A stretch of DNA of 49,016 nt from a virus, in IMG/VR virus record IMGVR_UViG_3300045988_021641; one strand, given 5' to 3'. The notes beneath the pieces were generated by a model. That model was not told where the DNA came from, did not search any database, and saw only the letters and a list, made by a program, of their open reading frames with translations. Of this stretch, positions 1-49,016 are shown piece by piece. Position numbers and translations under genes: made by a program. Every line of letters begins with the position of its first letter. Within the stretch, counting starts at the first letter, position 1.

Positions 1-89
1 AAACCGTTTGTCAAGAGTAAATGCACAAAAAAGCAAAAATATTTTTTAGGAGGCCAGAATGAGGGCGATTTCTTCCCGGAAAAGCTGCT
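1..89 (+). repeat. Terminal direct repeat, copy 1 (identical to 48928..49016)
   Basis: Base-by-base comparison: nt 1..89 equal nt 48928..49016. The repeat covers the 3' end and downstream flank of the IS30-type transposase gene. Confidence 0.95.
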
Positions 90-1092
90 CGGAGCACAGA
101 TAACCGAACATTTTGCGGGGGTAGTTGTTCAGCCAGTCCTCGATCCGCTTGGTCTCCTCGTAGGAGATCGTACTCAGGTCGGTGCCCTTCGGCAGGTGCC
201 GGCGTATGAGGCCGTTCTGGTTCTCATTGGATCCGCGCTCGCTTGGCCGGTAGGGGTGGCAGTAGTAGACCTCGGTGCGGGTGCCCTTGCCGCTGGCGCT
301 TCGTTCGATTCCGGCGGCGTCGGCAAACTCGCAGCCATTGTCGCAGGTGATGGATCTGAATACCTTCGGGAACAGGTCGCCGTACTTGGCCTCGAGCCCG
401 TCGATCGCAGCGACGACGCTGGCGGCCGTCTTGTCCGGCGACGGTATAATGAGCTCCCAGCGCGTTTTCCGCTCGGTCATCACGATGTAGGTGTTGCTGA
501 CGCCTTGGCAGCTTTCGACGCTGTCCATCTCCCAGTGTCCGAAGGTGCTGCGGTTGTTGATGTGCTCGGGCCGCTCCTCAATGCTCCGGCCGGCGGGCTT
601 GCGGGGCATGGATCCGGCCGGGCGCTCCGGCTGGTGGCGCTTGCCGTGCTGCGGCAGCATGGAGACGGTCAGCTCGTCGCCGAAGATCTCGCCGCGGATG
701 TAGTTGTAGGCGGTGCTCGCGCAGATGTGGGTCTTGAAGGGCCAGCCCTTGACCTCAGCCTCACCGATCGCGGCCTCCGGGCTGTACTTCTCGTCGCGGA
801 TCTTGGCGATCAGGTAGTCGGCCAGCTCGTAGTCGTTGCCGATCTTCAGCTCCGGCCCCTTGGCGCGGAGGTTGGCCTCATAGCGGGCCTGTGCGCCTTC
901 GGGGTTGTATCTGGTCTCGGTGGTGTAGTCGCTGTTGAGGTGCTCGTAGGTGCACCGCTTCAGCTCCCGGTAGATGGTCGTATGATGGACGCCGAGCTCC
1001 TTGGCGATGTCTGTCGGCTTCATTCCTGCGCGGATGAAGGCGTCGAGCTGGATGCGCTTGGTCGGCGTCAGATGGCTCCAGTGCTGTCCCAT
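46..1092 (-). CDS. IS30-family DDE transposase (348 aa)
   Basis: N-terminal HTH (LTPTKRIQLDAFIRAGMKPTDIAKELGVHHTTIYRELKR). Candidate catalytic-triad context HWEMDSV ... ITCDNGCEF ... RGSNENQNGLIRR. RBS GGAGGGG lies upstream of the ATG. Confidence 0.9.
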   Translation of the reverse strand: MGQHWSHLTPTKRIQLDAFIRAGMKPTDIAKELGVHHTTIYRELKRCTYEHLNSDYTTETRYNPEGAQARYEANLRAKGPELKIGNDYELADYLIAKIRDEKYSPEAAIGEAEVKGWPFKTHICASTAYNYIRGEIFGDELTVSMLPQHGKRHQPERPAGSMPRKPAGRSIEERPEHINNRSTFGHWEMDSVESCQGVSNTYIVMTERKTRWELIIPSPDKTAASVVAAIDGLEAKYGDLFPKVFRSITCDNGCEFADAAGIERSASGKGTRTEVYYCHPYRPSERGSNENQNGLIRRHLPKGTDLSTISYEETKRIEDWLNNYPRKMFGYLCSEQLFREEIALILAS

Positions 1093-4939: not shown

Positions 4940-5071
4940 TTACTCCTCGACGTCGTCGAAGTAGCCCATGTCGACGAGATACTTGTGCACGCGGGCCTTC
5001 AGCTTCGCGGGGACGTTGTCCTCGGTGATGCGGCCCATGATGATCTCGCCTGCATACAGACGTACCAGCAT
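4940..5071 (-). CDS. XkdX/CD1375-like small phage protein (43 aa)
   Basis: MLVRLYAGEIIMGRITEDNVPAKLKARVHKYL matches the 'IYA..I..G..T.DDVP..LR..V' pattern of small post-fibre proteins. The internal ATG is supported by an AAAGGAGGAG RBS. Confidence 0.6.
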   Translation of the reverse strand: MLVRLYAGEIIMGRITEDNVPAKLKARVHKYLVDMGYFDDVEE

Positions 5072-5127
5072 TTCACGCTCCTCCTTTCCTGCAATTTTTA
5101 ATAATAGCCACGCGAGGGCCCGGGCGA

Positions 5128-5292
5128 TCATTCGCTCGCCCTTTCCTTCGCGGTGCCAGCGTTTGCGGCTGCCTCGATGGCAGCGATGGCGTCCTCGACC
5201 TGCTTGCGCAGCTTCTTCGGGACGTCGTTGATGGTCATGGTGGAGCCTTCGCGGGTCAGCTCCCTGACGTACAGCTCGACGATCTTGCTCAT
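5128..5292 (-). CDS. Second XkdX/CD1375-like small protein (54 aa)
   Basis: MSKIVELYVRELTREGSTMTINDVPKKLRKQVEDAI, a paralogue of 4940..5071. GGGGAGG RBS and ATGA coupling to the upstream ORF. Not in the ORF track (under 60 aa). Confidence 0.55.
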   Translation of the reverse strand: MSKIVELYVRELTREGSTMTINDVPKKLRKQVEDAIAAIEAAANAGTAKERASE

Positions 5293-5459
5293 GCTGTTAC
5301 CTCCCCTCCGTCGCCGTAGACCACGTCGGCCAGCTCCATGATGCAGCCCTTCAGCAGCTCGATGGTGTCAGCCTGCTCGGCGATGGTTTTGTCCTTCTTG
5401 GCCTCTGCGGCCTGTTCGTCGTTCAGCTTTTGGATGCTGTCGGCTCTGTGTTTAATCAT
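5289..5459 (-). CDS. Small coiled-coil hypothetical protein (56 aa)
   Basis: ATGA overlap with the stop of the DGR target gene and with the next ORF. Product MIKHRADSIQKLNDEQAAEAKKDKTIAEQADTIELLKG... Confidence 0.45.
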   Translation of the reverse strand: MIKHRADSIQKLNDEQAAEAKKDKTIAEQADTIELLKGCIMELADVVYGDGGEVTA

Positions 5460-7165
5460 GCAAAGTTACCTCCGATCGACTGGATGTAGCAGGTCTCCGT
5501 AGCAGAGCCGCGGAGTAGCTTGGCCTTAACCTTGACGCCCCACGCTGAGGCCGTCTTGGTCTTGTTTGTGAAGTAGTGCTTCTGGCCGGTGCGGGCCTTC
5601 TGCGTGATGTCCTCCCACGTCGGGTTCGCGTCGTTGCCGTTGTTGCAGATCCAGATCTGGAGCGTGCAGCCGGCCGGGAAATTGCCCTGAATGTTGACGA
5701 GGGCCTTGGTCGGCATGGCGTCGGCCTCCATAGCGAGGGTCTGCTCGAACTCGACGGACGTGACGGCCTTGGTGAAGGTCAGCGCGCGGGTGACGCTGGC
5801 GTCCTTGGCGTCGGTCGCCACGATCTTCAGGGTGTGGCTGCCGTTCACGACCTTCAGCCACGCCTCGGAGCCGATCGTCAGCGTGTTGGTCTGGCCGAGG
5901 GTCACGGTGTAGCTGCGCAGCGTGACGCCGTCCAGCATCTCCACGACGTCGACCTGATGGCCGTCGGCGTCGGTGACGGTGTACTCGTAGGACGGGGCCG
6001 CCGTGCTGAAGCTGCCGAGGGCGCCGTCCGTGCCGCTGATGACGGGCGGTCGGTTATTGGTGACGGTGCGGGTGGCGCTGGTGGTGTACGCGCTCTCCGC
6101 GCCGGCGGCGTCGTATGCCTTGACGCGGTACTGCACGCTCGTCCATCCGTAGGTGATGGTGTCGGTGTAGGTGCGCGCGGATCCTTTGTAGACCTGCGCC
6201 CATGTGCCGCTCCCGACCTTGCGCTCCAGAACGTAGCCGGAGAGGTTGCCGTCGGGGTCGGTGGAGGCCGCCCACGAGATGCGCAGGTTCTCGCCGCCGA
6301 GCACTTCGCTCGGGACAGTGATGGACGACGGCGCTGTGGGCGCCTGATTGTAGATCACTGTATAGCATCCATCCGAGTCGACGGAGTCGGAGATCAGGAG
6401 ATCAGAGGACAGATTACAAGCGGGGCGCAGGCCGCGGCCGCCGTAGTAGGCGTAGTCCCAGTACAGAGTGCCAACGGTGCCGACGAGGCGGGCGTCGCGG
6501 GCCGAGCCGGCATAGGCGTCCCGCAGCCAGTAGTACCACGCGGCACCAGAGCCCGGGTTGCTGGAATAGTTGGAATTGGCGACGCAGGAGGCCGTCACGG
6601 TGGCGATGCGGCTGTTGTTGTCGCTAAAGATCGCCAGCTTGCTGCCGCAGACGTGGTCGCCGCTCAGGCCGACCTCAGTGCAGGACAGGGGGAAGATCTT
6701 GTCCGTGCAGGTCTCCGTCCCGCCGCCGTCTGTGGAGCTCTTGCCGACCGTGATGGTGGTGTTCAGCAGAGCTGCCCGCTCGTTGGCGGTGAAGGCGTTC
6801 AGAAAACCGGCGAGGCCACTGTACGGGTTGACGCCGTTCCAGACGTGGGAGGAGTCCGGCGTCTGGTCTGCGGAGTGCTGTGCGGTGTACCACTGGCCGG
6901 CAGCCGCGGGGCTGTTGAGCCACTGGCGCAGGTTCGAGTAGATGTAGCGGTTGTTGCCGTAGCCGCGGCGGTCGCTGTTGCCGTTACTCGGTTCTGTCGC
7001 GTCGAAGCACAGCATCTTGATGATCTGGTTGGTCACGAGCGTGACGCTGTTGGAGGGGTAGCCTGCGTGGTTCTTATCGGCCACGATCCAGACGATCGGG
7101 CTGCCGTACAGGCTGCCGAACTTGACCTTCGACTTGTTTGCGAGGTTGCTCAGTTTTTGGGCCAT
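5456..7165 (-). CDS. DGR target protein 1 (569 aa): N-terminal DUF6273/CLec-like variable ligand-binding domain, then FN3, Ig-like domain and a C-terminal beta domain; likely tail-associated receptor-binding protein
   Basis: Contains VR1. WYYWLRD...GLRPAC signature. FN3 region ISWAASTDPDGNLSGYVLERK...YRVKAYD. RBS AAAGGAG. Sits in the tail-fibre module next to the RT. Confidence 0.9.
   Translation of the reverse strand: MAQKLSNLANKSKVKFGSLYGSPIVWIVADKNHAGYPSNSVTLVTNQIIKMLCFDATEPSNGNSDRRGYGNNRYIYSNLRQWLNSPAAAGQWYTAQHSADQTPDSSHVWNGVNPYSGLAGFLNAFTANERAALLNTTITVGKSSTDGGGTETCTDKIFPLSCTEVGLSGDHVCGSKLAIFSDNNSRIATVTASCVANSNYSSNPGSGAAWYYWLRDAYAGSARDARLVGTVGTLYWDYAYYGGRGLRPACNLSSDLLISDSVDSDGCYTVIYNQAPTAPSSITVPSEVLGGENLRISWAASTDPDGNLSGYVLERKVGSGTWAQVYKGSARTYTDTITYGWTSVQYRVKAYDAAGAESAYTTSATRTVTNNRPPVISGTDGALGSFSTAAPSYEYTVTDADGHQVDVVEMLDGVTLRSYTVTLGQTNTLTIGSEAWLKVVNGSHTLKIVATDAKDASVTRALTFTKAVTSVEFEQTLAMEADAMPTKALVNIQGNFPAGCTLQIWICNNGNDANPTWEDITQKARTGQKHYFTNKTKTASAWGVKVKAKLLRGSATETCYIQSIGGNFA
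6418..6512 (-). other. DGR variable repeat VR1
   Basis: 95 nt colinear with the TR at 8492..8586. By hand alignment there are 17 mismatches, all where the TR coding strand has A. Encodes AGSARDARLVGTVGTLYWDYAYYGGRGLRPAC. Confidence 0.9.
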
Positions 7166-8297
7166 GAGTTGTGTCTCCTTTCGGTGATGGTTTGAGCTCC
7201 GGGAAATAGCTGAAGAAATAGGCGTCCATGTTCTGCCGCAGGTGGTAGGTGTTGCCGTGTGAGATGTGGCCCGTCCAGCTCGCGTAGGATTGCACGACGC
7301 TGTCGAGTGTCATCTTGCCGGAGTCCACCAGCCCGCGGAACTTGCGGATCTTGCGCTTCATGTTGTCGATGCTCTTGGCTCGCACTTTCCTCACGACCTT
7401 GCCGGTCTGCGTGAGGTAGGTGTGAAAACCGAGGAAGTCGATGCCGTTCTTCAGCGGGAGGATCTGCGTCTTGCCGTTCAGCCGAAGGCCGAGCGGCTTG
7501 ATGTACGCCTCGATCTCCTTGAGTATCTGCCGGAGCAGCAGCTTGTCGCTGTGGATGATGTAGAAGTCGTCCATGTACCTGCCATATACGAGGCCGCGGT
7601 CATCCCTCAGCCAGTGGTCGAAGGCGTCCAGATAGAGCAGCGCGAGCAGTTGGCTCGACTGGTTGCCGATCGGGATGCCGGGGTCTGGCGTGCTGTCGAT
7701 TATGAGCCACAGCAGCCACTCAGCGAAGTCGATCAGCTCGGGATCCTTCAGCCACTTCAGGGCCCGGCGGGCCGTTTCGTAACAGTAGGAATGGAGCAGG
7801 GTGTAAAAGAACTTTGAAAAATCGCCCTTCAGTACCCAGCCGTCGGCGTAGTCCCACTCGTTCATCGGCCGGGGCGGCAGGCCGGCAGCCTTGCGGGCTG
7901 CTTCGTCTGCTGCCTTTCGGCTGAAGAAATAGTGGCGCATAGCCGCAGACAGACGGTCGAGGCCGTCGTGGGTGCCTTTGCCGATCTGGCCGGCGTAGTT
8001 GTCCCGGATGAAGCGCCGGGAGAACGCCGGCTCGAGGACGTTGTCGCAGAGCGAGTGCTGGACGACTTTGCCCTCGAAGTCGATGGCGAGGACGAGCCGC
8101 TCCTTGGGCTCGTACACCTTGAAGGGGTAGTAGGGCCCGAAGGAATAGTCGCGCCGCTGGAGCCTCTCAGAGAGGGCGACGGTGCGCTCGATGGCCTCCA
8201 TGCGGTAGCGCATGGCGGTCGGGTTGTCGCGCTTTCCGCAGCGGGTTTTGCGGTATGCTTTGTAGAGCGCGATGGTGCTGTTTACGATATTCTCCAT
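7074..8297 (-). CDS. DGR reverse transcriptase
   Basis: RT motifs including YMDDFYIIH and the DGR-typical IGNQSSQ motif (IPIGNQSSQLLALLYLD). Start taken at MENIVNST (ATG 8297). The ORF tail overlaps the target gene start by about 90 nt. Confidence 0.92.
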   Translation of the reverse strand: MENIVNSTIALYKAYRKTRCGKRDNPTAMRYRMEAIERTVALSERLQRRDYSFGPYYPFKVYEPKERLVLAIDFEGKVVQHSLCDNVLEPAFSRRFIRDNYAGQIGKGTHDGLDRLSAAMRHYFFSRKAADEAARKAAGLPPRPMNEWDYADGWVLKGDFSKFFYTLLHSYCYETARRALKWLKDPELIDFAEWLLWLIIDSTPDPGIPIGNQSSQLLALLYLDAFDHWLRDDRGLVYGRYMDDFYIIHSDKLLLRQILKEIEAYIKPLGLRLNGKTQILPLKNGIDFLGFHTYLTQTGKVVRKVRAKSIDNMKRKIRKFRGLVDSGKMTLDSVVQSYASWTGHISHGNTYHLRQNMDAYFFSYFPELKPSPKGDTTHGPKTEQPRKQVEGQVRQPVRQPDRLDRGR

Positions 8298-8491
8298 TGA
8301 AAAGTCTCCCCGCCGTGTATAGCTCCGGCCGCGCTTTGCGTGCGCCGCCGGGAGCATCGGCGGTCTTGTGTTTACCCATGACCGGGCCGGTCAGACGGCC
8401 GCGGCTGCGGGAGGGATATGCCTTCCTTGGATGATGGGGCACAGTGTTCGCCGTCCGTCTCCGGGCGGTTAATAAGTCGGGCGATCCATCG

Positions 8492-8586
8492 AAGCGGGGC
8501 GCAGGCCGTTGTTGCCGTTGTAGGCGTTGTTCCTGTTCAGAGTGCCATCGGTGTTGACGTTGCGGGCGTTGTTGGCCGAGCCGGCA
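8492..8586 (-). other. DGR template repeat (TR), part of the TR-spacer RNA upstream of the RT
   Basis: Non-coding position between avd and the RT. In the VR frame it reads AGSANNARNVNTDGTLNRNNAYNGNNGLRPAS, with ten AAC codons. About 25 adenines on the coding strand. The 3' end reads GGCCTGCGCCCCGCTT-C versus -G in both VRs. Confidence 0.9.
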
Positions 8587-8617
8587 CGAAAAAACAAGGC
8601 ATACCCCGAGGGCTGCC

Positions 8618-9016
8618 TCACTGGTGACGCTTCTGCGCGTCCAGCTTGGTGGCCCTCTCTTTATCCGTTTTGTACCATTTGGCGGTCTGGTTCTTCACGC
8701 CGGCCGCCATCTTCGCCCAGTATGCAAAGGCGTCATCGCTGAAGCCACTGAGGATCTCATGCGCGAGCTCGATGTGGTGGATCAGCTTTCGGCAGTTGCG
8801 AAGCGCCGACCGCTGCGCGCGATACCTGAGCTCACGCTCCTCGGGATCCGTCAGGAGCAGATCGTTGGTCTCCATCAGATCGGCGACGAGGTCGCTGGCC
8901 TCGTTCATCATCCTCTGCGCCAGACCGAGTCGCTCCTTCTTCGGGAAAACGGCCGGGTTTCTGGTCTTGATGTAGGTGTGTTTCTCGAGCTCCTTGGCGT
9001 CCGTGATGACCTGCAT
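8618..9016 (-). CDS. avd: Avd-like accessory variability determinant (four-helix-bundle protein, 132 aa)
   Basis: The size, the basic helical character, the FPKKERLGLAQRMMNEASDLVADLMETN motif and the position immediately 5' of the TR all fit Avd. Confidence 0.78.
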   Translation of the reverse strand: MQVITDAKELEKHTYIKTRNPAVFPKKERLGLAQRMMNEASDLVADLMETNDLLLTDPEERELRYRAQRSALRNCRKLIHHIELAHEILSGFSDDAFAYWAKMAAGVKNQTAKWYKTDKERATKLDAQKRHQ

Positions 9017-9029
9017 CTCGGGCAGTTTG

Positions 9030-9287
9030 TCACGGCCGAAGGGCGGGCTGCCTACATTGGCCCGCTCGTATGGCCGCGAGTGTCCGTTGCTTGCCGTAGT
9101 ATCTCACCTCCTCGCCTTTGATTGTGACGCGGGCGCTGCTGCCGTCGTAGGTCTTGCCCTGAATGACGATGACGCCGTCCTCCCGCTTGCAGCAGGAGCA
9201 GGGCAGGGCCAGCTCGACAAACAGGTGCGCGATGATGCAGGAGGCTTCGGCTGGTGGGATCGGGGTGTAGTTGTAGCAGTTTCCCAT
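9030..9287 (-). CDS. Cys-rich hypothetical protein (85 aa)
   Basis: Internal ATG overlaps the stop of the upstream gene (TGATG). Product MGNCYNYTPIPPAEASCIIAHLFVELALPCSCCKRE... No recognisable family. Confidence 0.4.
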   Translation of the reverse strand: MGNCYNYTPIPPAEASCIIAHLFVELALPCSCCKREDGVIVIQGKTYDGSSARVTIKGEEVRYYGKQRTLAAIRAGQCRQPALRP

Positions 9288-9505
9288 CAGCACTCGAGCC
9301 TCCGCTGCCCTGTGTTCCAGATGCCGGATCTCACGGTCAGCCCCTCCAGATCGTCGAATGTGATCTGGAAGGGGTTGCTCGTGATGTCCGTGCAAACGAA
9401 GTCCCACAGGGCGTCGACCTTCACCTTCAGAGCGTTGTCAGCCGCGTCGACATACTCCTTCGTCGTGATGTCCTTCGGGTCGTCGACTGCTCCGTAGTGT
9501 TTCAT
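9287..9505 (-). CDS. Small protein carrying the '...NPF.ITF.DL.G.T...GIWN....RLEC' module (72 aa)
   Basis: The C-terminal 45 aa are paralogous to the C-terminus of the 11537..12286 product. GGAGG RBS. Confidence 0.6.
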   Translation of the reverse strand: MKHYGAVDDPKDITTKEYVDAADNALKVKVDALWDFVCTDITSNPFQITFDDLEGLTVRSGIWNTGQRRLEC

Positions 9506-11536: not shown

Positions 11537-12286
11537 TTAGCACTCGAGGCGCTGGAGTCCGCTGTTCCAGATGCCGGCCGTCAGGGTGATGCCCGTCAGG
11601 TCTGCAAACGTGATCCGGAAGGGGTTGGTCGTGATCTCGCTGAAAACGGCGTCCCACAGTGTTGCGATCTTGCTGGTGTTCTGGCCGACCGCGTTGCTCA
11701 GGTCATTCACTGACGCCTCGGCGGCCTGTGCGATTGCGATGGCCTGCCGGGCGAGCGCCAGAGCCTCCTCGGCCGTAGCCTGCGCGCCGAGGGCGATGGC
11801 CTTGTAGGTCTCGTAGTCCTCTTTGGTGGCGTAGGCGTCGGCGGGGATGTAGGCGGTCACGTTGGTGGCCGTGCCGATCGCGGTGACGATGTCGATGGTT
11901 TTCTCGACGATGGTGGCGCCGCCGGAGGGCGGGATCCACTCGGCCAGATCGCCGCAGTTGCCGTAGCAGTACAGCACCTCGCCGACCTCGGGATCGGGAT
12001 CTTCGGCATAAAGGCCGAGCTCGCGGTAGTAGAAGCCCTCGGTCTCGTCGCCGTTGGTGAAGATGCCGCCGACGGCCACGGTGCCGTCGCCGTTGATCTT
12101 CAGCTTCGTGATGTCGACGGTCGCCTTCGGGCTGACCACGCCGGTGAGGGTGCGGGGCGTCTGGCCCTCCTCGAGGTAGCCATCGCCGAGGACGATCTTG
12201 GTGTAGTTGATCTTCTGGCCGGCCACGCCCTTCGCCAGAACGATCAGGCCGGCGGTGGTGATGTCGTTGTTGATAAATGCAGCCAT
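11537..12286 (-). CDS. Tail-collar fibre protein (DUF3751-like N-terminus) with C-terminal RLEC module
   Basis: ITTAGLIVLAKGVAGQKINYTKIVLGDG...FYYRELGLYAEDPD...VLYCYGN is typical of P2 gpH-type N-terminal domains. Confidence 0.75.
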   Translation of the reverse strand: MAAFINNDITTAGLIVLAKGVAGQKINYTKIVLGDGYLEEGQTPRTLTGVVSPKATVDITKLKINGDGTVAVGGIFTNGDETEGFYYRELGLYAEDPDPEVGEVLYCYGNCGDLAEWIPPSGGATIVEKTIDIVTAIGTATNVTAYIPADAYATKEDYETYKAIALGAQATAEEALALARQAIAIAQAAEASVNDLSNAVGQNTSKIATLWDAVFSEITTNPFRITFADLTGITLTAGIWNSGLQRLEC

Positions 12287-43744: not shown

Positions 43745-45397
43745 TTATTCGAGCGCGATGATGTCGCAGTTGTAACGCAGGTTTTCCTCGTCGATGATGT
43801 GCAGTTTTTTCCTTTCGGCGAGAAGCTCAGAGAGCTGGTCGACCACGTCGAAGCCTTCAGGGGGCGGGGCGGGTGCGGTGCTGTCCTTCTCCTTCAGCGC
43901 TCGGTCGTTTTCGATGATCTGCTCCTTGATTTCTTCGGGGGCGTCCGAGAGGTCTGTCGTCTGGTCGGGGCTTTCGGGTGCCTCAGCCTTCTGCTCTGCG
44001 GTGCGCTCGAAGCGTTTGCCGAGCTCCCAGTCGTCGCGGCGAAGGTCGAAGGCGTCACCGAGCTGAATGATGTCGGGATAGTTGCTGAGCGCGACGGTCA
44101 TGGCGGGCTTGTCGATTTCGTAGGCGTAGTAGGTTACATTCGTAAAGCCCATTTTGTCGAGGCAATAGCGCCCGGTGCCGATGCCGTCATACATGGAGAG
44201 GACGACGATCTCCTCGTCCCTCGGCACGTCCTTCAGGGCTCCCGCGAGGATGTGGATGATGACCTCAGCCGTCCAGCCATTCCCGAGCCCGCGGTATCTT
44301 TGCGTCGCGCTGACTGCCGATGTGTAGCCATCAGGAAGGGTCTGGAGCCGTTCGCACTCCGTCGGCGTGAGCTTTCGGATGACGTAATAGCCGTCCGGCA
44401 GCTTGATCGGGTACTTTTTGCCTTTTATCTCGATCTCTCCGTTGACCACCTCATAGACCGGCAGATCTTCGCCGTTTTGGTTAGTGACGACAAGCCTGCT
44501 CTGATGTCCTGATGCTGTGAGGGCGTTGGCTTTGCCGTCGGTTCTTACCTCGTATGCAGAGCCATCGTCTCGACCGCGCCACGCAGCACCTTGAGCCTCT
44601 CCTGCGGGGTAGGCATAAAGCCCAGTCTCAGGGCCGCCCCCGTTGGGTCTGGCGCATAGTGCCACAGCTTTGCCGCTCGCGTCGTAGATCCTGTGAGCTT
44701 GTCCTCCAGTAACCTCTCCGTCTGCGTTTGGCATGGTGCCGACTCTTACCGGCGCGGCGTAAAGCCCCGTTTTCGCTCCGAGCCCGCCGCCCTCGCCGCA
44801 CAGGGTCGTTGCTTTCCCTTCGGGGGAGTAGACTCTGTACTGCTTGGAGTCATGGCTCTGTTTCTTGGCGCTGTTCTCGATGGTGCCGATCCTGATTGGC
44901 TCAGCAACCATGCTGTCGGTCTGCACAGTCGTCAGGGCGTTGGCTTTTTCAATCCCACTGGTCTCGAAGCGTCGGTACAGTTTTCCGTCGTCCTCGCGGC
45001 GGTTCCTGCATCCGACTCCGACCGCCGGAGCTCTGAGCTCGTACCCTTTTTCGGAGGTTGCCGTCTCGAGGATGTCCTTCAGCATGATGCCGCGATCCGC
45101 GGGCTGGTCGACGTTCCAGTTGAAGGCGTAAAAGCGTTGACGGTTCTGTGCGCTCACGAGGGCGCTGTTGATGTGCATGAGATCCACGCCGAGCTCGTGG
45201 CTGATTTGGTCTTTAATTGGCTGTGCGGCGCTCTTGTTGTTCTCATAGAGGAAAAAATCAGGCTTGAATTTTTCCTTTGCAATCAGGTAGTTTCTGAACA
45301 GCTCCCAGCCGAGCCCCTCAGCTTCGACCTCTCGCCCCTTTTTCTGTGCGACGCTCCAGTAGGTGCACGGAGAGCCGCCGATCAAAATCTTTATCAT
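43745..45397 (-). CDS. DNA (cytosine-5) methyltransferase with permuted motif order (IV-VI-VIII-TRD repeats-IX-X-I-II-III), 550 aa
   Basis: Motif IV GGSPCTYWS at aa 7-15; YENNKS (VI); QNRQRFY (VIII); LTPTECERLQTLPDGY (IX); LGNGWT (X). Only after these come LSMYDGIGTG (I), YAYEID (II) and LGDAFDL (III). Confidence 0.85.
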   Translation of the reverse strand: MIKILIGGSPCTYWSVAQKKGREVEAEGLGWELFRNYLIAKEKFKPDFFLYENNKSAAQPIKDQISHELGVDLMHINSALVSAQNRQRFYAFNWNVDQPADRGIMLKDILETATSEKGYELRAPAVGVGCRNRREDDGKLYRRFETSGIEKANALTTVQTDSMVAEPIRIGTIENSAKKQSHDSKQYRVYSPEGKATTLCGEGGGLGAKTGLYAAPVRVGTMPNADGEVTGGQAHRIYDASGKAVALCARPNGGGPETGLYAYPAGEAQGAAWRGRDDGSAYEVRTDGKANALTASGHQSRLVVTNQNGEDLPVYEVVNGEIEIKGKKYPIKLPDGYYVIRKLTPTECERLQTLPDGYTSAVSATQRYRGLGNGWTAEVIIHILAGALKDVPRDEEIVVLSMYDGIGTGRYCLDKMGFTNVTYYAYEIDKPAMTVALSNYPDIIQLGDAFDLRRDDWELGKRFERTAEQKAEAPESPDQTTDLSDAPEEIKEQIIENDRALKEKDSTAPAPPPEGFDVVDQLSELLAERKKLHIIDEENLRYNCDIIALE

Positions 45398-45402
45398 TCA
45401 TT

Positions 45403-46113
45403 TCACTTCCTTCCTGTGCGGGCCGGGAGCGTCTGCTCGGGTCTGGTCAGCCCCTTGCTGAAGCTCTGCGGCTCATATCTGACGCCCACGATCCGGCGGC
45501 CGCTGACGCCGTACTTGGGGTTGTAGCCGAACAGGTTGACGTAGCTACCGAGATCCTCGCGCTCGTCGTCCATCGCCTTCAGCACCTCGAACAGGGTCAG
45601 CACGTCGTCGATGGCGCGATGGCTGTTCTGCACCTTGCCGGTGAGGTCGTAGGCGATGATCGCGTTGGCGAGCTTGTGCGGGTAGGCCCTGCGGTCTTTG
45701 TAGACTGTCAGACTGTCCAGCCAGTCGATCCGGCCGACCTTCTGGCCTCGGAGCAGGCCACGGAGGAAACAGGCGTCGAACTGTGCATTGTGGGCGATCA
45801 TCAGGGTCGGGCCATTCTGCATGAGCTTGGCGATCTGGCCGGCTGCCTTGACCGGCTGCACGCCCTCGGTCTGGAGCCGCCCGTCGGTGATGCCGGTCAG
45901 GCTGACGATGTTCTCCGGGAGGGTCTCGCCCTCGGGTAGCTTGATGAAGGTGTCCATCTTGCCGGCGATCCGTAGGCCGCCGGTTGCCGTGCGCTCCACG
46001 CGCAGGGCGGCGAGCTCGATGATCTGGTCGCTGTCGAAGTCGAGGCCGCTGGTCTCGGTATCAAACACGACGAGGGCCTTGTAGCGGTCGAACAGGGTGG
46101 AGAGGTTACTCAT
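45403..46113 (-). CDS. DnaQ-like 3'-5' exonuclease (DEDDh, 236 aa)
   Basis: Exo I VVFDTETSGL, Exo II IAHNAQFDACFL, Exo III HRAIDDV. Confidence 0.88.
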   Translation of the reverse strand: MSNLSTLFDRYKALVVFDTETSGLDFDSDQIIELAALRVERTATGGLRIAGKMDTFIKLPEGETLPENIVSLTGITDGRLQTEGVQPVKAAGQIAKLMQNGPTLMIAHNAQFDACFLRGLLRGQKVGRIDWLDSLTVYKDRRAYPHKLANAIIAYDLTGKVQNSHRAIDDVLTLFEVLKAMDDEREDLGSYVNLFGYNPKYGVSGRRIVGVRYEPQSFSKGLTRPEQTLPARTGRK

Positions 46114-46810
46114 GCCGGGCCTCCTTCTCGCGGGCAGCTCTCAGGGTGCCGAGCATAAACGAGAGGGCTGTGGTCAGTTGATCCTCGGTGGCGAAGGTGC
46201 CGCCGAACTGCTCGGCCAGCGCCGCGATGATCTCGCCGGCGTGCTCCGGCGTGACGTCGTCGGTGGCTTCGTCGTCCTCGATGGAGATCAGGAGATCGGA
46301 GTCCAGATAACAAGCGGGGCGCAGGCCGTAGAGGCCGTCGTAGGCGTTGTCCCAGTTCAGAGTGCCGCCGGCGTAGACGCTGCGGGCGAGTGACTCGTAG
46401 CCGTTAGACTTCGTGCTGAAGGCGGTGGACAGCCACCACCAGTCGTCTGCGTTCGAGATGACGTCGCGGTTGCGCCGGTACTGGTCGACCGTCAGCAGGA
46501 AGATGGTGACGGTGCAGGTGCCGTAGTCCTTCAGGCCGTCGTCGGTGGTCAGGTCGAGCTCCGTGGTCAGGAAGGCGTTGGGGCCGTTCACGTCCTCGAG
46601 CAGGTTGTCGAGGTAGGCGCCGTTGAGGTATTCCTTGCTGCTGGCGACGGCGAAGTTGTTGCAGTTGCCCTCGTCAAAGGCTCGGGTCTCGATGATGTCC
46701 TTGCTCAGGCAGAGTGCGCGGCCATCATCATTCTCCAGCAGGATCCAGCTCTGGCCGGCATAGTCGAAGGCCGTGCCGCGGGCGGCGTTCTTGAGTGCGA
46801 TCTTTTTCAT
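46106..46810 (-). CDS. DGR target protein 2: stand-alone DUF6273/CLec-like domain protein (234 aa) in the early region
   Basis: Contains VR2. Homologous to the N-terminal domain of target 1 (WWWLSTA...GLRPACYLDSDLLIS). No signal peptide is evident. Confidence 0.88.
   Translation of the reverse strand: MKKIALKNAARGTAFDYAGQSWILLENDDGRALCLSKDIIETRAFDEGNCNNFAVASSKEYLNGAYLDNLLEDVNGPNAFLTTELDLTTDDGLKDYGTCTVTIFLLTVDQYRRNRDVISNADDWWWLSTAFSTKSNGYESLARSVYAGGTLNWDNAYDGLYGLRPACYLDSDLLISIEDDEATDDVTPEHAGEIIAALAEQFGGTFATEDQLTTALSFMLGTLRAAREKEARHE
46312..46388 (-). other. DGR variable repeat VR2 (remote)
   Basis: 77 nt colinear with TR 8492..8568. There are 10 mismatches at TR adenines plus one non-A mismatch (46367). 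The 3' GC-rich end GGCCTGCGCCCCGCTTG is identical to VR1. Homology decays 5' of 46388. Confidence 0.85.
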
Positions 46811-46986
46811 GGGGTTGCTCCTTTCGTTCTCTGCGGCCGAGCCTTCTGGCTGGCCTGAATGTTCGGCAGGGTCTCGCCGGCGCGGAGCCGGCTCTCACAG
46901 TGCGGGCAGATGTAGCCGGTGCGGGGGATCTTCTGGTAGATGCTGACGTTCCAGTCGAGCCCGCAGCCGACGCACTTGGCTGTCAT
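46807..46986 (-). CDS. Small zinc-ribbon protein (59 aa)
   Basis: CVGCG...CPHC. ATGA coupling on both sides. Confidence 0.5.
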   Translation of the reverse strand: MTAKCVGCGLDWNVSIYQKIPRTGYICPHCESRLRAGETLPNIQASQKARPQRTKGATP

Positions 46987-47714
46987 GGGCCTCCACCTCC
47001 TTCCGCAGCCAGAGCCTCGAAAACGTAGCGCCGGATGCGGTTGCGGTACTTCTTCCGGGTTCTGGCTTTCTTTGCGTGGGCCGCGAGGTGCAGCCACTTC
47101 GGCGGCACTCCGATGGCCCTGACCGATACCTTCCAGAGCTTTTTGAAGGCAGAGAGCACGGCGTTGATGACCGGCTTCATGGCTTCGGCCAGCTTGGCGG
47201 CGATTTCCCGCAGCGCGTCGGCCAGTCTATCGAGGGCTTCGTGGGCCTGCTGCATCTTCTCGTGATCGGCGAGCGCCATGCTGCCGTCGTAGACGTAGGG
47301 GCTCAGCTCGTCATCGCCGCCGTCGGCCAGACGCTCGCAGAACGGGAGGCCGGCAGCTTCAGCAGCCTTGCGGCCCTCCTCGAGGGCGTCCCGGCCTTGC
47401 GTGACTTCGCAATAGTCCGCGAGGCGGTTGTGGCCGCCTTCGTAGTGCCAGCGGATCCCGGCGGCGATCTCGTCGATGGTCATGCTCTCACCGAAGTGGC
47501 CGCAGTAGTAGCCGTTGACGATGACGGCGTCCGGGTCTGCCTTCAGGATCCCGATGGCGTCGTTGAGATCGTCGGTCTCCCACTCGCCGTTCCAGATGTC
47601 GCTCCAGATTGTCAGGGCGTTCCACGAGCGGCCGGTGCGATACACGATTGTCCAGCCGATGCCGTCACGGATCTCCGCGGCGAAGTCTCGGGCGATGTCT
47701 CTCAGTGCTGCCAT
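46983..47714 (-). CDS. Hypothetical early protein (243 aa)
   Basis: Clean ORF; no family recognised. Confidence 0.65.
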   Translation of the reverse strand: MAALRDIARDFAAEIRDGIGWTIVYRTGRSWNALTIWSDIWNGEWETDDLNDAIGILKADPDAVIVNGYYCGHFGESMTIDEIAAGIRWHYEGGHNRLADYCEVTQGRDALEEGRKAAEAAGLPFCERLADGGDDELSPYVYDGSMALADHEKMQQAHEALDRLADALREIAAKLAEAMKPVINAVLSAFKKLWKVSVRAIGVPPKWLHLAAHAKKARTRKKYRNRIRRYVFEALAAEGGGGP

Positions 47715-48349: not shown

Positions 48350-48541
48350 TCAGCAGCAGGCGAAGATCGCGGCGATCTGCGCCTTGGTTGCTCTCTGGTA
48401 GCTGGAATAAAAAACACGACCGCCGACTTCTTGGTTGATGGCATAGTGGCCGTCGGCGTAGCGCTTAATGAGCCACACTTTGCGAGGGTTCCACTTGTCA
48501 ACCTTGCGTGTCAGGGTCGTGTTGTTTCTTCTGCTTCTCAT
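48350..48541 (-). CDS. Small basic hypothetical protein (63 aa)
   Basis: Internal ATG with an AAAGGAGAC RBS. Confidence 0.5.
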   Translation of the reverse strand: MRSRRNNTTLTRKVDKWNPRKVWLIKRYADGHYAINQEVGGRVFYSSYQRATKAQIAAIFACC

Positions 48542-48845
48542 GGGGGTCTCCTTTCTTCGGCCCGGCGCTGCCGGGTGTTCTTGGCTTCTGTGCGGCCGGT
48601 GCTCGTTTACCTCTGCGCTTGAAGCTCTCACGCAGCCGCCTCTCGGCGAGCTCTGCGCTGTACCCTTCGCGCTGGTTGGCGTCCAGCGTGCCGGTCGCGC
48701 CTCGCTGGAGCTCCTTGTAGATCGTGGTGTGGTGGACGCTCAGGCGGGCCGCGATGTCGACCGGCCGATCTCCGAGCAGATGCCACGCCTCGATCTTCTT
48801 CCTGTCCTCGAAGGTCAGGTAGCGGTACTTTCCCGTCAGTCTCAC
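48498..48845 (-). CDS. Orphan IS30-type N-terminal HTH protein (about 113-115 aa; start at GTG 48845 or CTG 48839)
   Basis: YRYLTFEDRKKIEAWHLLGDRPVDIAARLSVHHTTIYKELQRG aligns with the N-terminus of the transposase at 46..1092 (HLTPTKRIQLDAFIRAGMKPTDIAKELGVHHTTIYRELKR). No DDE domain. GGAGG overlaps or precedes the candidate starts. Confidence 0.6.
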   Translation of the reverse strand: MRLTGKYRYLTFEDRKKIEAWHLLGDRPVDIAARLSVHHTTIYKELQRGATGTLDANQREGYSAELAERRLRESFKRRGKRAPAAQKPRTPGSAGPKKGDPHEKQKKQHDPDTQG

Positions 48846-48876
48846 CTCCGTCCTATGGGGTTGTAGTAAAGAAAAA

Positions 48877-48912
48877 ACGCACAGCCGACTCAGTTGAGTC
48901 TCTGTGCGTTTA
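48877..48912 (-). terminator. Strong rho-independent terminator
   Basis: Nested hairpin ACGCACAG..GACTCA..TGAGTC..CTGTGCGT followed by T6 on the minus strand. It lies downstream of the (repeat-copy) transposase 3' end and upstream of the orphan HTH gene. Confidence 0.7.
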
Positions 48913-49016
48913 ATGATAACGGACGGCAAACCGTTTGTCAAGAGTAAATGCACAAAAAAGCAAAAATATTTTTTAGGAGGCCAGAATGAGGGCGATTTCT
49001 TCCCGGAAAAGCTGCT

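Follow-up and report, generated by a model that had tools for sequence, protein, structure and literature searches.

A two-target diversity-generating retroelement and its predicted RNA scaffold in the genome of an nd4-like gut phage

The window studied here, the whole 49,016-nt stretch of IMG/VR virus record IMGVR_UViG_3300045988_021641, carries at 5456..9016 a group of genes and repeats which a first-pass annotation of the sequence had read as a complete diversity-generating retroelement (DGR), composed of avd, a template repeat (TR), a reverse transcriptase (RT) and a target gene. Each of these components was checked and found. All of them lie on the minus strand and follow each other in transcription as avd (9016..8618), TR (8586..8492), RT (8297..7074) and target 1 (7165..5456), and a further target gene (target 2) on the same strand is located at 46106..46810. 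The two targets each contain a variable repeat (VR), at the C-terminal edge of a DUF6273 domain in both proteins.

The TR (8492..8586) is 95 nt long and has 25 adenines and ten AAC codons, and VR1 (6418..6512), also 95 nt, encodes aa 218-250 of target 1. Direct comparison showed the two to be colinear exactly as annotated, in register and with zero indels, and in a per-base census of the aligned repeats 17/17 mismatches affect adenines of the TR when it is read on the coding (minus) strand, corresponding to T on the plus strand (hypergeometric P = 4.2e-13 for 25 A in 95 nt), again in agreement with the annotation. Read in frame, the TR gives ...AGSANNARNVNTDGTLNRNNAYNGNNGLRPAS and VR1 gives ...AGSARDARLVGTVGTLYWDYAYYGGRGLRPAC, and these translations, like the number of AAC codons, had been stated correctly. 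A repeat search of the whole window uncovered a third copy besides TR and VR1, namely VR2 (46312..46388, minus strand) inside target 2, which is 77 nt long, is the counterpart of TR positions 19-95 and has 11 mismatches with the TR, ten at A and one T to C (P 3e-6). TR, VR1 and VR2 all have the 3' end GGCCTGCGCCCCGCTT, which is followed by G in both VRs and by C in the TR, with the homology between TR and VRs ending right after this end and the G/C difference. The difference resembling a pair of initiation of mutagenic homing sequences (IMH/IMH*), which had been proposed for VR1, is thus found for both VRs, and the IMH-like end GGCCTGCGCCCCGCTTG of VR1 (6433..6417) is identical to that of VR2 (46327..46311), both on the minus strand. 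Beyond the IMH, the next 36 nt of the two targets (6381..6416 and 46275..46310; GTWATCTGNNNTCYGATCTCCTGATCTCC...) are ~86% identical in genes that can otherwise barely be aligned, and encode the conserved C(N/Y)L(S/D)SDLLIS end of DUF6273; this likeness may reflect coding conservation or a cis-acting homing signal, which are inseparable here.

The RT gene (7074..8297, likely start ATG at 8297) encodes a protein of 407 aa, in which both motifs named in the first-pass annotation were located, YMDD at 7577..7566 and the DGR-typical IGNQSSQ at 7670..7650 (minus strand); they align with the catalytic and the template-contacting residues, respectively, of the Bordetella RT (bRT), as do the fingertip motif K-x-R-L and the I-G of IGxxxSQ with their bRT equivalents. 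The best match in the PDB is the Bordetella DGR RT (8ub7_A, E 8.7e-36), aligned in two segments that together take in most of the protein, and phrog_1423 is matched with E 2.4e-115. Judged by sequence similarity, the protein is a DGR-clade RT, grouping with the Bordetella enzyme. A rival explanation is that it belongs to another retroelement or to a defence system (retron, group II intron, Drt or Abi), and that TR and VR are a paralogous repeat which has undergone ordinary divergence. There is indeed weak similarity to the group II, Drt3a, retron St85, Drt2 and Drt4 RT models of NCBIfam, Pfam returns the generic RVT_1 only, and neither NCBIfam nor Pfam contained a DGR-specific RT or Avd model that scored. 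However, all NCBIfam RT models remain far under their cut-offs (group II 79 bits vs 300, Drt3a 45 vs 200, retron St85 32 vs 235), group II RTs reach merely E 4.4e-12 in the PDB search, which the 8ub7 match surpasses by 24 orders of magnitude, and an Rfam search of 5000..9500 at E up to 1 gave zero matches, retron and group II RNAs included. Moreover, ordinary divergence can neither put 17/17 changes on adenines (P 4e-13) nor hold a non-coding TR invariant while the coding copies vary, so that this alternative is effectively refuted and its probability negligible. The RT open reading frame (ORF) extends beyond the target 1 start codon and overlaps target 1 by 92 nt (7074..7165), with the target 1 start having its own AGGAG ribosome-binding site; the overlap is shared by a close relative (L033) and absent from a more distant member of the clade (L051).

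The gene upstream of the TR (8618..9016, minus strand) encodes 132 aa and had been annotated as an Avd-like helical protein. Searches with its sequence gave zero matches in Pfam, NCBIfam or the PDB, and a match in PHROGs to phrog_3206, 'Avd protein of DGR' (E 6.3e-26). An AlphaFold2 model built with 30 homologues (predicted local distance difference test score, pLDDT, 92.5) is a four-helix bundle, which Foldseek superposes on BPP-1 Avd (4dwl) with TM scores of 0.73 (query) and 0.87 (target) and a root-mean-square deviation of 2.0 Å. Other Foldseek matches of the model are 8ub8_C, the Avd chain of the DGR ribonucleoprotein, and 2gsc and 2rld, both regarded here as four-helix proteins of the Avd type. 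The profile match and the predicted fold identify the protein as an accessory variability determinant (Avd), in line with its earlier annotation.

Around the TR, we searched for conserved RNA elements using 78 related loci from bacterial genomes that encode relatives of the RT, in which TR/VR pairs were identified with an A-tolerant diagonal search; 22 diverse members of the clade were aligned from the TR 3' end towards the RT, and analysed with RNAalifold and pair counting. In these 22 members a helix is formed by GAUGG just after the TR and CCAUC ~50 nt downstream, with compensatory changes, and it encloses a hairpin with a mostly GNRA-type tetraloop, which is followed by more stems and an invariant GAUAAACACA-like block. 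Pairing in this spacer reaches 91.5% of cells vs 33-49% when the partners are slid by 1-3 columns, and the covariation score is 0.372 vs at most 0.09 in the slid controls, a score reached by 0/500 shuffles. In the window the corresponding structured spacer (Sp) RNA lies directly 3' of the TR (8413..8491, minus strand, as are all elements of this region), with the stem GAUGG (8490..8486) and CCAUC (8437..8433), a GAGA-capped hairpin (8468..8451) and, after the Sp RNA, the invariant GGUAAACACA (8376..8367). A second, long-range duplex of 12 bp brackets the TR, and is formed by GGGGUAUGCCUU (8596..8607) upstream and AAGGCAUAUCCC (8424..8413) downstream. An equivalent duplex of 12-14 bp with compensatory changes is found in 17/21 related loci tested besides the window, in which its length was matched by 0-3/100 shuffles, and across the clade a strand 15-40 nt upstream of the TR pairs with the spacer 56-79 nt downstream of it. 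A terminator-like match at 8608..8595 was rejected, as it is better explained as one strand of this long-range duplex, and a scan for sigma-70 promoters found nothing. In the cryo-electron microscopy structure of the BPP-1 ribonucleoprotein, a TR:spacer template-primer duplex, an Avd-binding stem-loop and an upstream-downstream 'cPRT stop' duplex have been described, the latter two being conserved in 207 DGRs (10.1101/2023.10.23.563531). By analogy, the elements in the window would correspond to those of the BPP-1 DGR RNA, with the long-range duplex as the probable counterpart of the 'cPRT stop' duplex, and from this likeness we infer a cis-primed, Avd-assisted reverse transcription.

With regard to natural diversity, an exact-match scan with the TR retrieved 24 IMG/VR contigs, and two near-identical records are present in GenBank; the TR is identical in the 24 contigs and in phage nd4. 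The VR1 copies of these sequences are almost all distinct, with the differences on TR adenines, and among 30 related loci VR1 occurs in 29 distinct sequences. When each VR1 was compared with its own TR (27 distinct pairs), 409/671 A cells were changed (61%), against 10/1894 non-A cells (0.5%). For VR2, where most loci came from a second scan using the flank of VR2, there are 83 distinct sequences among 86 loci, and in comparison with the TR of the window 58% of A cells and 2.9% of non-A cells are changed. Related genomes with the same TR are 96-99% identical, yet nearly every VR is different, and the search for A-site polymorphism in the VR with an invariant TR, which had been suggested as a check on the annotation, was thus positive across related contigs. 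On the comparison of these genomes, the element is evidently active in natural populations.

The changes at other bases were found to recur, as T46G, C7G, T40C, C34G/T and C36A (numbered from 1 in the 95-nt TR, coding strand), in loci L003, L009, L014, L018, L026, L033-L040 and L049. The same changes are TR alleles of sister lineages, where they are found in the cognate VR: G46 is present in the VR of 7/7 loci which have G46 in the TR and a detectable VR, and G10T occurs in TR and VR1 alike in L026. The reappearance of TR alleles in the cognate VR is direct evidence that information passes from TR to VR at non-adenine sites too, and gives indirect support to mutagenic retrohoming. Most of the VR changes that seem to affect bases other than adenine thus go back to TR alleles and are not errors of the RT. 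In the passages searched, the paper describing nd4 reads such changes as independent of retrohoming (PMC10743442). The T-to-G change at TR position 46 was considered as an RT error hotspot, a candidate which was rejected as the TR of sister lineages carries G46.

The diversity data also bear on the possibility that the window contains a relic DGR, in which the repeats record past mutagenic homing and the element no longer works in this genome. Decay does occur in the clade: in the TR of locus L037 (Lachnoclostridium sp. An14, NZ_NFLE01000004.1) seven adenines of the sister TRs are replaced by other bases (A-to-N); this TR also differs from its own VR at 11 non-A sites, and looks like a template that has decayed or been overwritten. 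In addition, some related phages have kept both targets while the DGR is absent (preprint, 10.1101/2024.10.15.618418), and activity of the element in this very genome is extrapolated from its relatives. Against a relic, avd, the RT and both targets are intact ORFs, the RT has its catalytic and fingertip motifs, and the TR is the same as in the 24 IMG/VR contigs and nd4, in which almost all VRs differ despite the close identity of the genomes. We therefore consider a relic improbable, and regard it as almost certain that the region is a functional DGR, carried by a temperate, nd4-like myophage whose hosts are gut Clostridia (Oscillospiraceae and relatives), as A-restricted VR diversity in nature with an invariant TR is combined here with RT and Avd homology, covariation of the RNA and the anatomy of the locus.

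In the mechanism we propose, avd, TR, spacer and RT would be transcribed from the minus strand, by analogy with BPP-1. The RNA from ~8607 to ~8413 would fold such that the two sides of the TR are held together by the 12-bp duplex, a stem ties the TR 3' flank to the spacer, and the GNRA-type hairpin stands in between. RT and an Avd pentamer would then bind the folded RNA, with the cDNA primed in cis at the TR 3' end, where the exact priming nucleotide is a guess, and the TR would be copied faithfully except opposite adenines. The mutagenised cDNA would replace VR1 in target 1 and VR2 in target 2, with homing directed by the shared GC-rich end GGCCTGCGCCCCGCTT plus G, and with the TR, which has C at the last position, being spared. 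Cis-priming and the route of cDNA integration are inferred, as is what the two targets bind.

Several observations weigh against this reading. The activity is deduced from differences between genomes, and four loci combine T46 in the TR with G46 in VR1; to explain these, one has to assume that lineages have recombined or that the VR was last rewritten before the change in the TR. A GC-rich hairpin downstream of the VRs, of the kind present in BPP-1 and Legionella, was not found, as the sequences after VR1 and VR2 give no significant fold (z -0.78 and +0.66) and merely a 4-bp GATC stem. Such a hairpin is also missing from the closest relatives and from most of the clade with TR-RT-target order, in which stems of 5-6 bp after the VR are present only in its two most distant loci (L084 and L087), and distant relatives with canonical order have stems of 7-10 bp with CTTGT-type loops at this position. 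To our knowledge, not all DGRs have such a hairpin after their VR, and its absence therefore does not exclude membership. The C-type-lectin fold of the targets was likewise not reproduced: the AlphaFold2 model of target 2, made with 30 close homologues, was unusable (pLDDT 39), the best 120 matches of this protein all being at least 82% identical and providing no deeper alignment. A profile of 16 diverse DUF6273 target domains reached in the PDB only the DUF6273 domain of IgA protease 9qa6, and did not reach Mtd, TvpA or FGE. DUF6273 has been reported as C-type-lectin-like in two papers, and in published AlphaFold models the VR is carried by a beta-hairpin within such a C-type-lectin-like domain (PMC10743442, passages searched). 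Given the missing sequence link to Mtd-type lectin domains and the unusable model, the assignment of the fold thus rests on these published models.

Target 1 (5456..7165, minus strand) has 569 aa and consists of DUF6273 (Pfam, aa 39-253, E 4.5e-39), followed by an FN3 domain and C-terminal beta domains; its PDB matches are the N-terminal domain of 9qa6, FN3con (aa 274-363) and a tail-fibre protein, with a match in the beta domains at aa 357-484. From this domain order, and with the region 98% identical to that of nd4, the founding member, it belongs to the tentaclin family, in which a DUF6273 (C-lec) domain bearing the VR stands at the N-terminus and is followed by one to four Ig/Fn3 domains (PMC10743442). 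As to the genomic context, baseplate and tail-fibre genes lie upstream, and holin and endolysin genes downstream. The first-pass description of the element as embedded in the tail-fibre module thus holds for its position, but PHROGs labels the target differently, as the full-length protein matches phrog_10993, 'Hoc-like head decoration' (E 1.9e-254), and because of this conflict between label and position its place on the virion is not settled. Just upstream of avd there are two direct repeats (9289..9421 and 11539..11671, 74% identical), in which a 72-aa ORF and the 249-aa tail-fibre protein have their C-terminal ends (...NPFxITFxDLxGxTxxxGIWNxGxxRLEC). The repeats suggest a fibre tip that has been duplicated or can be exchanged, or else a module resembling a chaperone.

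Target 2 (46106..46810, minus strand) is a smaller protein of 234 aa, with a DUF6273 C-terminal half (Pfam, aa 83-171, E 2e-9), a match to phrog_9958 (E 5e-77) and an acidic helical tail. It is located among early genes, its minus-strand neighbours being a C5 cytosine methylase of 550 aa (43745..45397, Pfam match in two stretches), a DnaQ-like exonuclease (45403..46113), a small zinc-ribbon protein (46807..47097) and a protein with an LPD15 'large polyvalent-protein-associated' domain (46983..47714, E 1e-38). Besides the window, nd12, a distant phage for which 31% genome identity is given (PMC10743442, passages searched), also has target 2 in this position; there it is fused to an N-terminal DUF3310 domain and is flanked by a Dam methylase and a weak MazG-like match. 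The published hypothesis is that target 2 is an Mtd-like receptor binder, and no virion proteomics is reported in the passages searched (both PMC10743442). By eye, the N-terminus of target 2 has no hydrophobic stretch resembling a signal peptide. Its place among early genes allows a role outside the virion without showing it. Target 2 could then be an early-expressed, intracellular or non-structural binder and not a virion receptor-binding protein, with the DGR diversifying it e.g. against a variable host factor or defence protein, an option which we regard as rather unlikely. By our own arithmetic, the theoretical diversity is up to ~4e14 peptide variants for the target 1 loop and ~2e12 for target 2.

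Five homologues of target 2 (P0131, P0144, P0147, P0151 and P0216) have an in-frame insertion of 10-17 aa inside the VR, which in at least four of them (14-17 aa) reads as a second, independently A-mutated copy of the TR-encoded ARxVxTDGTLxxxx. The 9-mer AACAACGCC occurs twice in the TR, 42 nt apart, and misaligned cDNA integration at this repeat could give duplications of 14 codons. At the DNA level, no insertions were found in the VRs of 78 IMG/VR loci, in which there were only one 3-nt and one 1-nt deletion, and the insertions may be assembly artefacts of a hypervariable region.

The order avd-TR-RT-target had been pointed out as differing from BPP-1, which is correct; it is not a peculiarity of this element, being the rule for the RT clade and falling within the published architecture B1, which has a core of avd-TR-RT and a variable target position (PMC5758913); non-adjacent targets within the same prophage are reported there as common. 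Wherever a TR/VR pair was found beside an RT of at least 40% identity, the TR precedes the RT, and the VR is located 500-800 nt inside the gene that follows it. Altogether the VR is downstream of the TR in 43 pairs, and the canonical order with the VR upstream of the TR was found in 11 pairs, all beside RTs of at most 32% identity. The avd-TR-RT-target order is a stable character of the clade.

The ends of the window are identical over 89 nt (1..89 and 48928..49016), and in the related contig L033 the sequence continues across this junction with the 89-nt end present once, from which it follows that the genome is circular or terminally redundant, with a size of ~48.9 kb. VR2 is consequently only ~10.8 kb from the RT, in the direction of transcription, so that the element extends beyond 5456..9016, its second target being reached over this distance on the circular genome. 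Homology to the window ends at window position 4 in L027, a 143-kb Clostridiales contig (UMGS1263) with an RT copy of 99-100% identity, and this copy is therefore in an integrated prophage; the junction of the window ends looks like a phage attachment or end site. An IS30-like DDE transposase (46..1092, minus strand; phrog_4646, E 6.7e-135) adjoins the junction, and a second ORF (48498..48953, minus strand) has the same N-terminal helix-turn-helix. As the distant phage nd12 also encodes an IS30-family transposase, it may be an integration enzyme and not an inserted insertion sequence. With regard to the host, RT copies of 99-100% identity are found in metagenome-assembled genomes (MAGs) and assemblies labelled Clostridiales, Oscillospiraceae and Gemmiger, and relatives at 84-88% identity in Butyricicoccus pullicaecorum DSM 23266, Lachnoclostridium sp. 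An14 and Oscillospiraceae 44-34. For MAGs of Collinsella and Alistipes, most matches come from short contigs (2-18 kb in the loci that were fetched), and they were taken as binning errors.

The element is already known, as the same two-target DGR has been described for the ~98% identical phage nd4, and the present work is a confirmation and not a discovery. The passages searched of the nd4 paper report a DGR with two targets, a TR with 25 adenines, A-restricted variation of VR1 and VR2, and 54 genomes with an identical TR (PMC10743442, Int J Mol Sci 2023); the RNA elements, the explanation of non-adenine changes by TR alleles and the early-gene position of target 2 were not seen in these passages. 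What is added here is that a BPP-1-type RNA scaffold appears to be kept, with covariation, in a clade with a different gene order and VR position, that the TR-RT-target clade mostly lacks a hairpin downstream of the VR, that most apparent non-adenine VR changes are inherited TR alleles, and that target 2 has a conserved position in the early module. DGRs create very large, targeted protein diversity, by which gut phages probably adjust their binding to bacteria, mucus or host cells. More than 33,000 member sequences from public sequencing runs fall into one cluster of target 2 alone, and such a widespread element lends itself to the study, in a natural setting, of two targets supplied by one template, for which this instance provides a fully verified and well-annotated example.

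In comparison with known systems, the closest is phage nd4 (OR777945), in which the region corresponding to 5456..9016 is 98.2% identical and the rest of the genome ~97-98%. It has the same 95-nt TR with 25 adenines, the same order avd-TR-RT-target 1 and, according to the passages searched, the same 569-aa target 1 (DUF6273, Fn3 and Ig-like, 'tentaclin') and 234-aa target 2 with DUF6273 (PMC10743442). The differences from the window are limited to the VR sequences and minor strain-level changes, and all DGR genes in the GenBank record of nd4 are annotated as 'hypothetical protein'. With BPP-1 (mtd-avd-TR-brt) the window shares a homologous RT (E 8.7e-36), the predicted four-helix fold of Avd, adenine-specific mutagenesis, and a GC-rich VR 3' end with a difference between VR and TR just after it. 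Three RNA elements would also be shared, namely the long-range duplex across the TR, the stem-loop that follows it, and the pairing of its 3' flank with the spacer. Unlike BPP-1, where the target is upstream of avd and the VR is C-terminal, the window has target 1 downstream of the RT and VR1 internal to it (aa 218-250 of 569), it has two targets and no hairpin after the VR, and its target domain is DUF6273, with no detectable sequence similarity to Mtd. The Faecalibacterium phages (Lelie, CP11; Toutatisvirus) resemble the window in that they have two DUF6273 targets, a large and a small one, whose VR is likewise found where the domain ends on its C-terminal side, and in that the second target is many kb from the TR (PMC11792537; 10.1101/2024.10.15.618418), but they belong to other phage genera with other hosts and have distant sequences, and for Toutatisvirus the second target is reported to lie 17.5 kb upstream of the TR. 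A 2026 preprint (10.64898/2026.05.08.723808) deals with tentaclins as well. Finally, compared with architecture B1 (Wu et al. 2018, PMC5758913) there is no difference in kind, and the element of the window is one instance of it.

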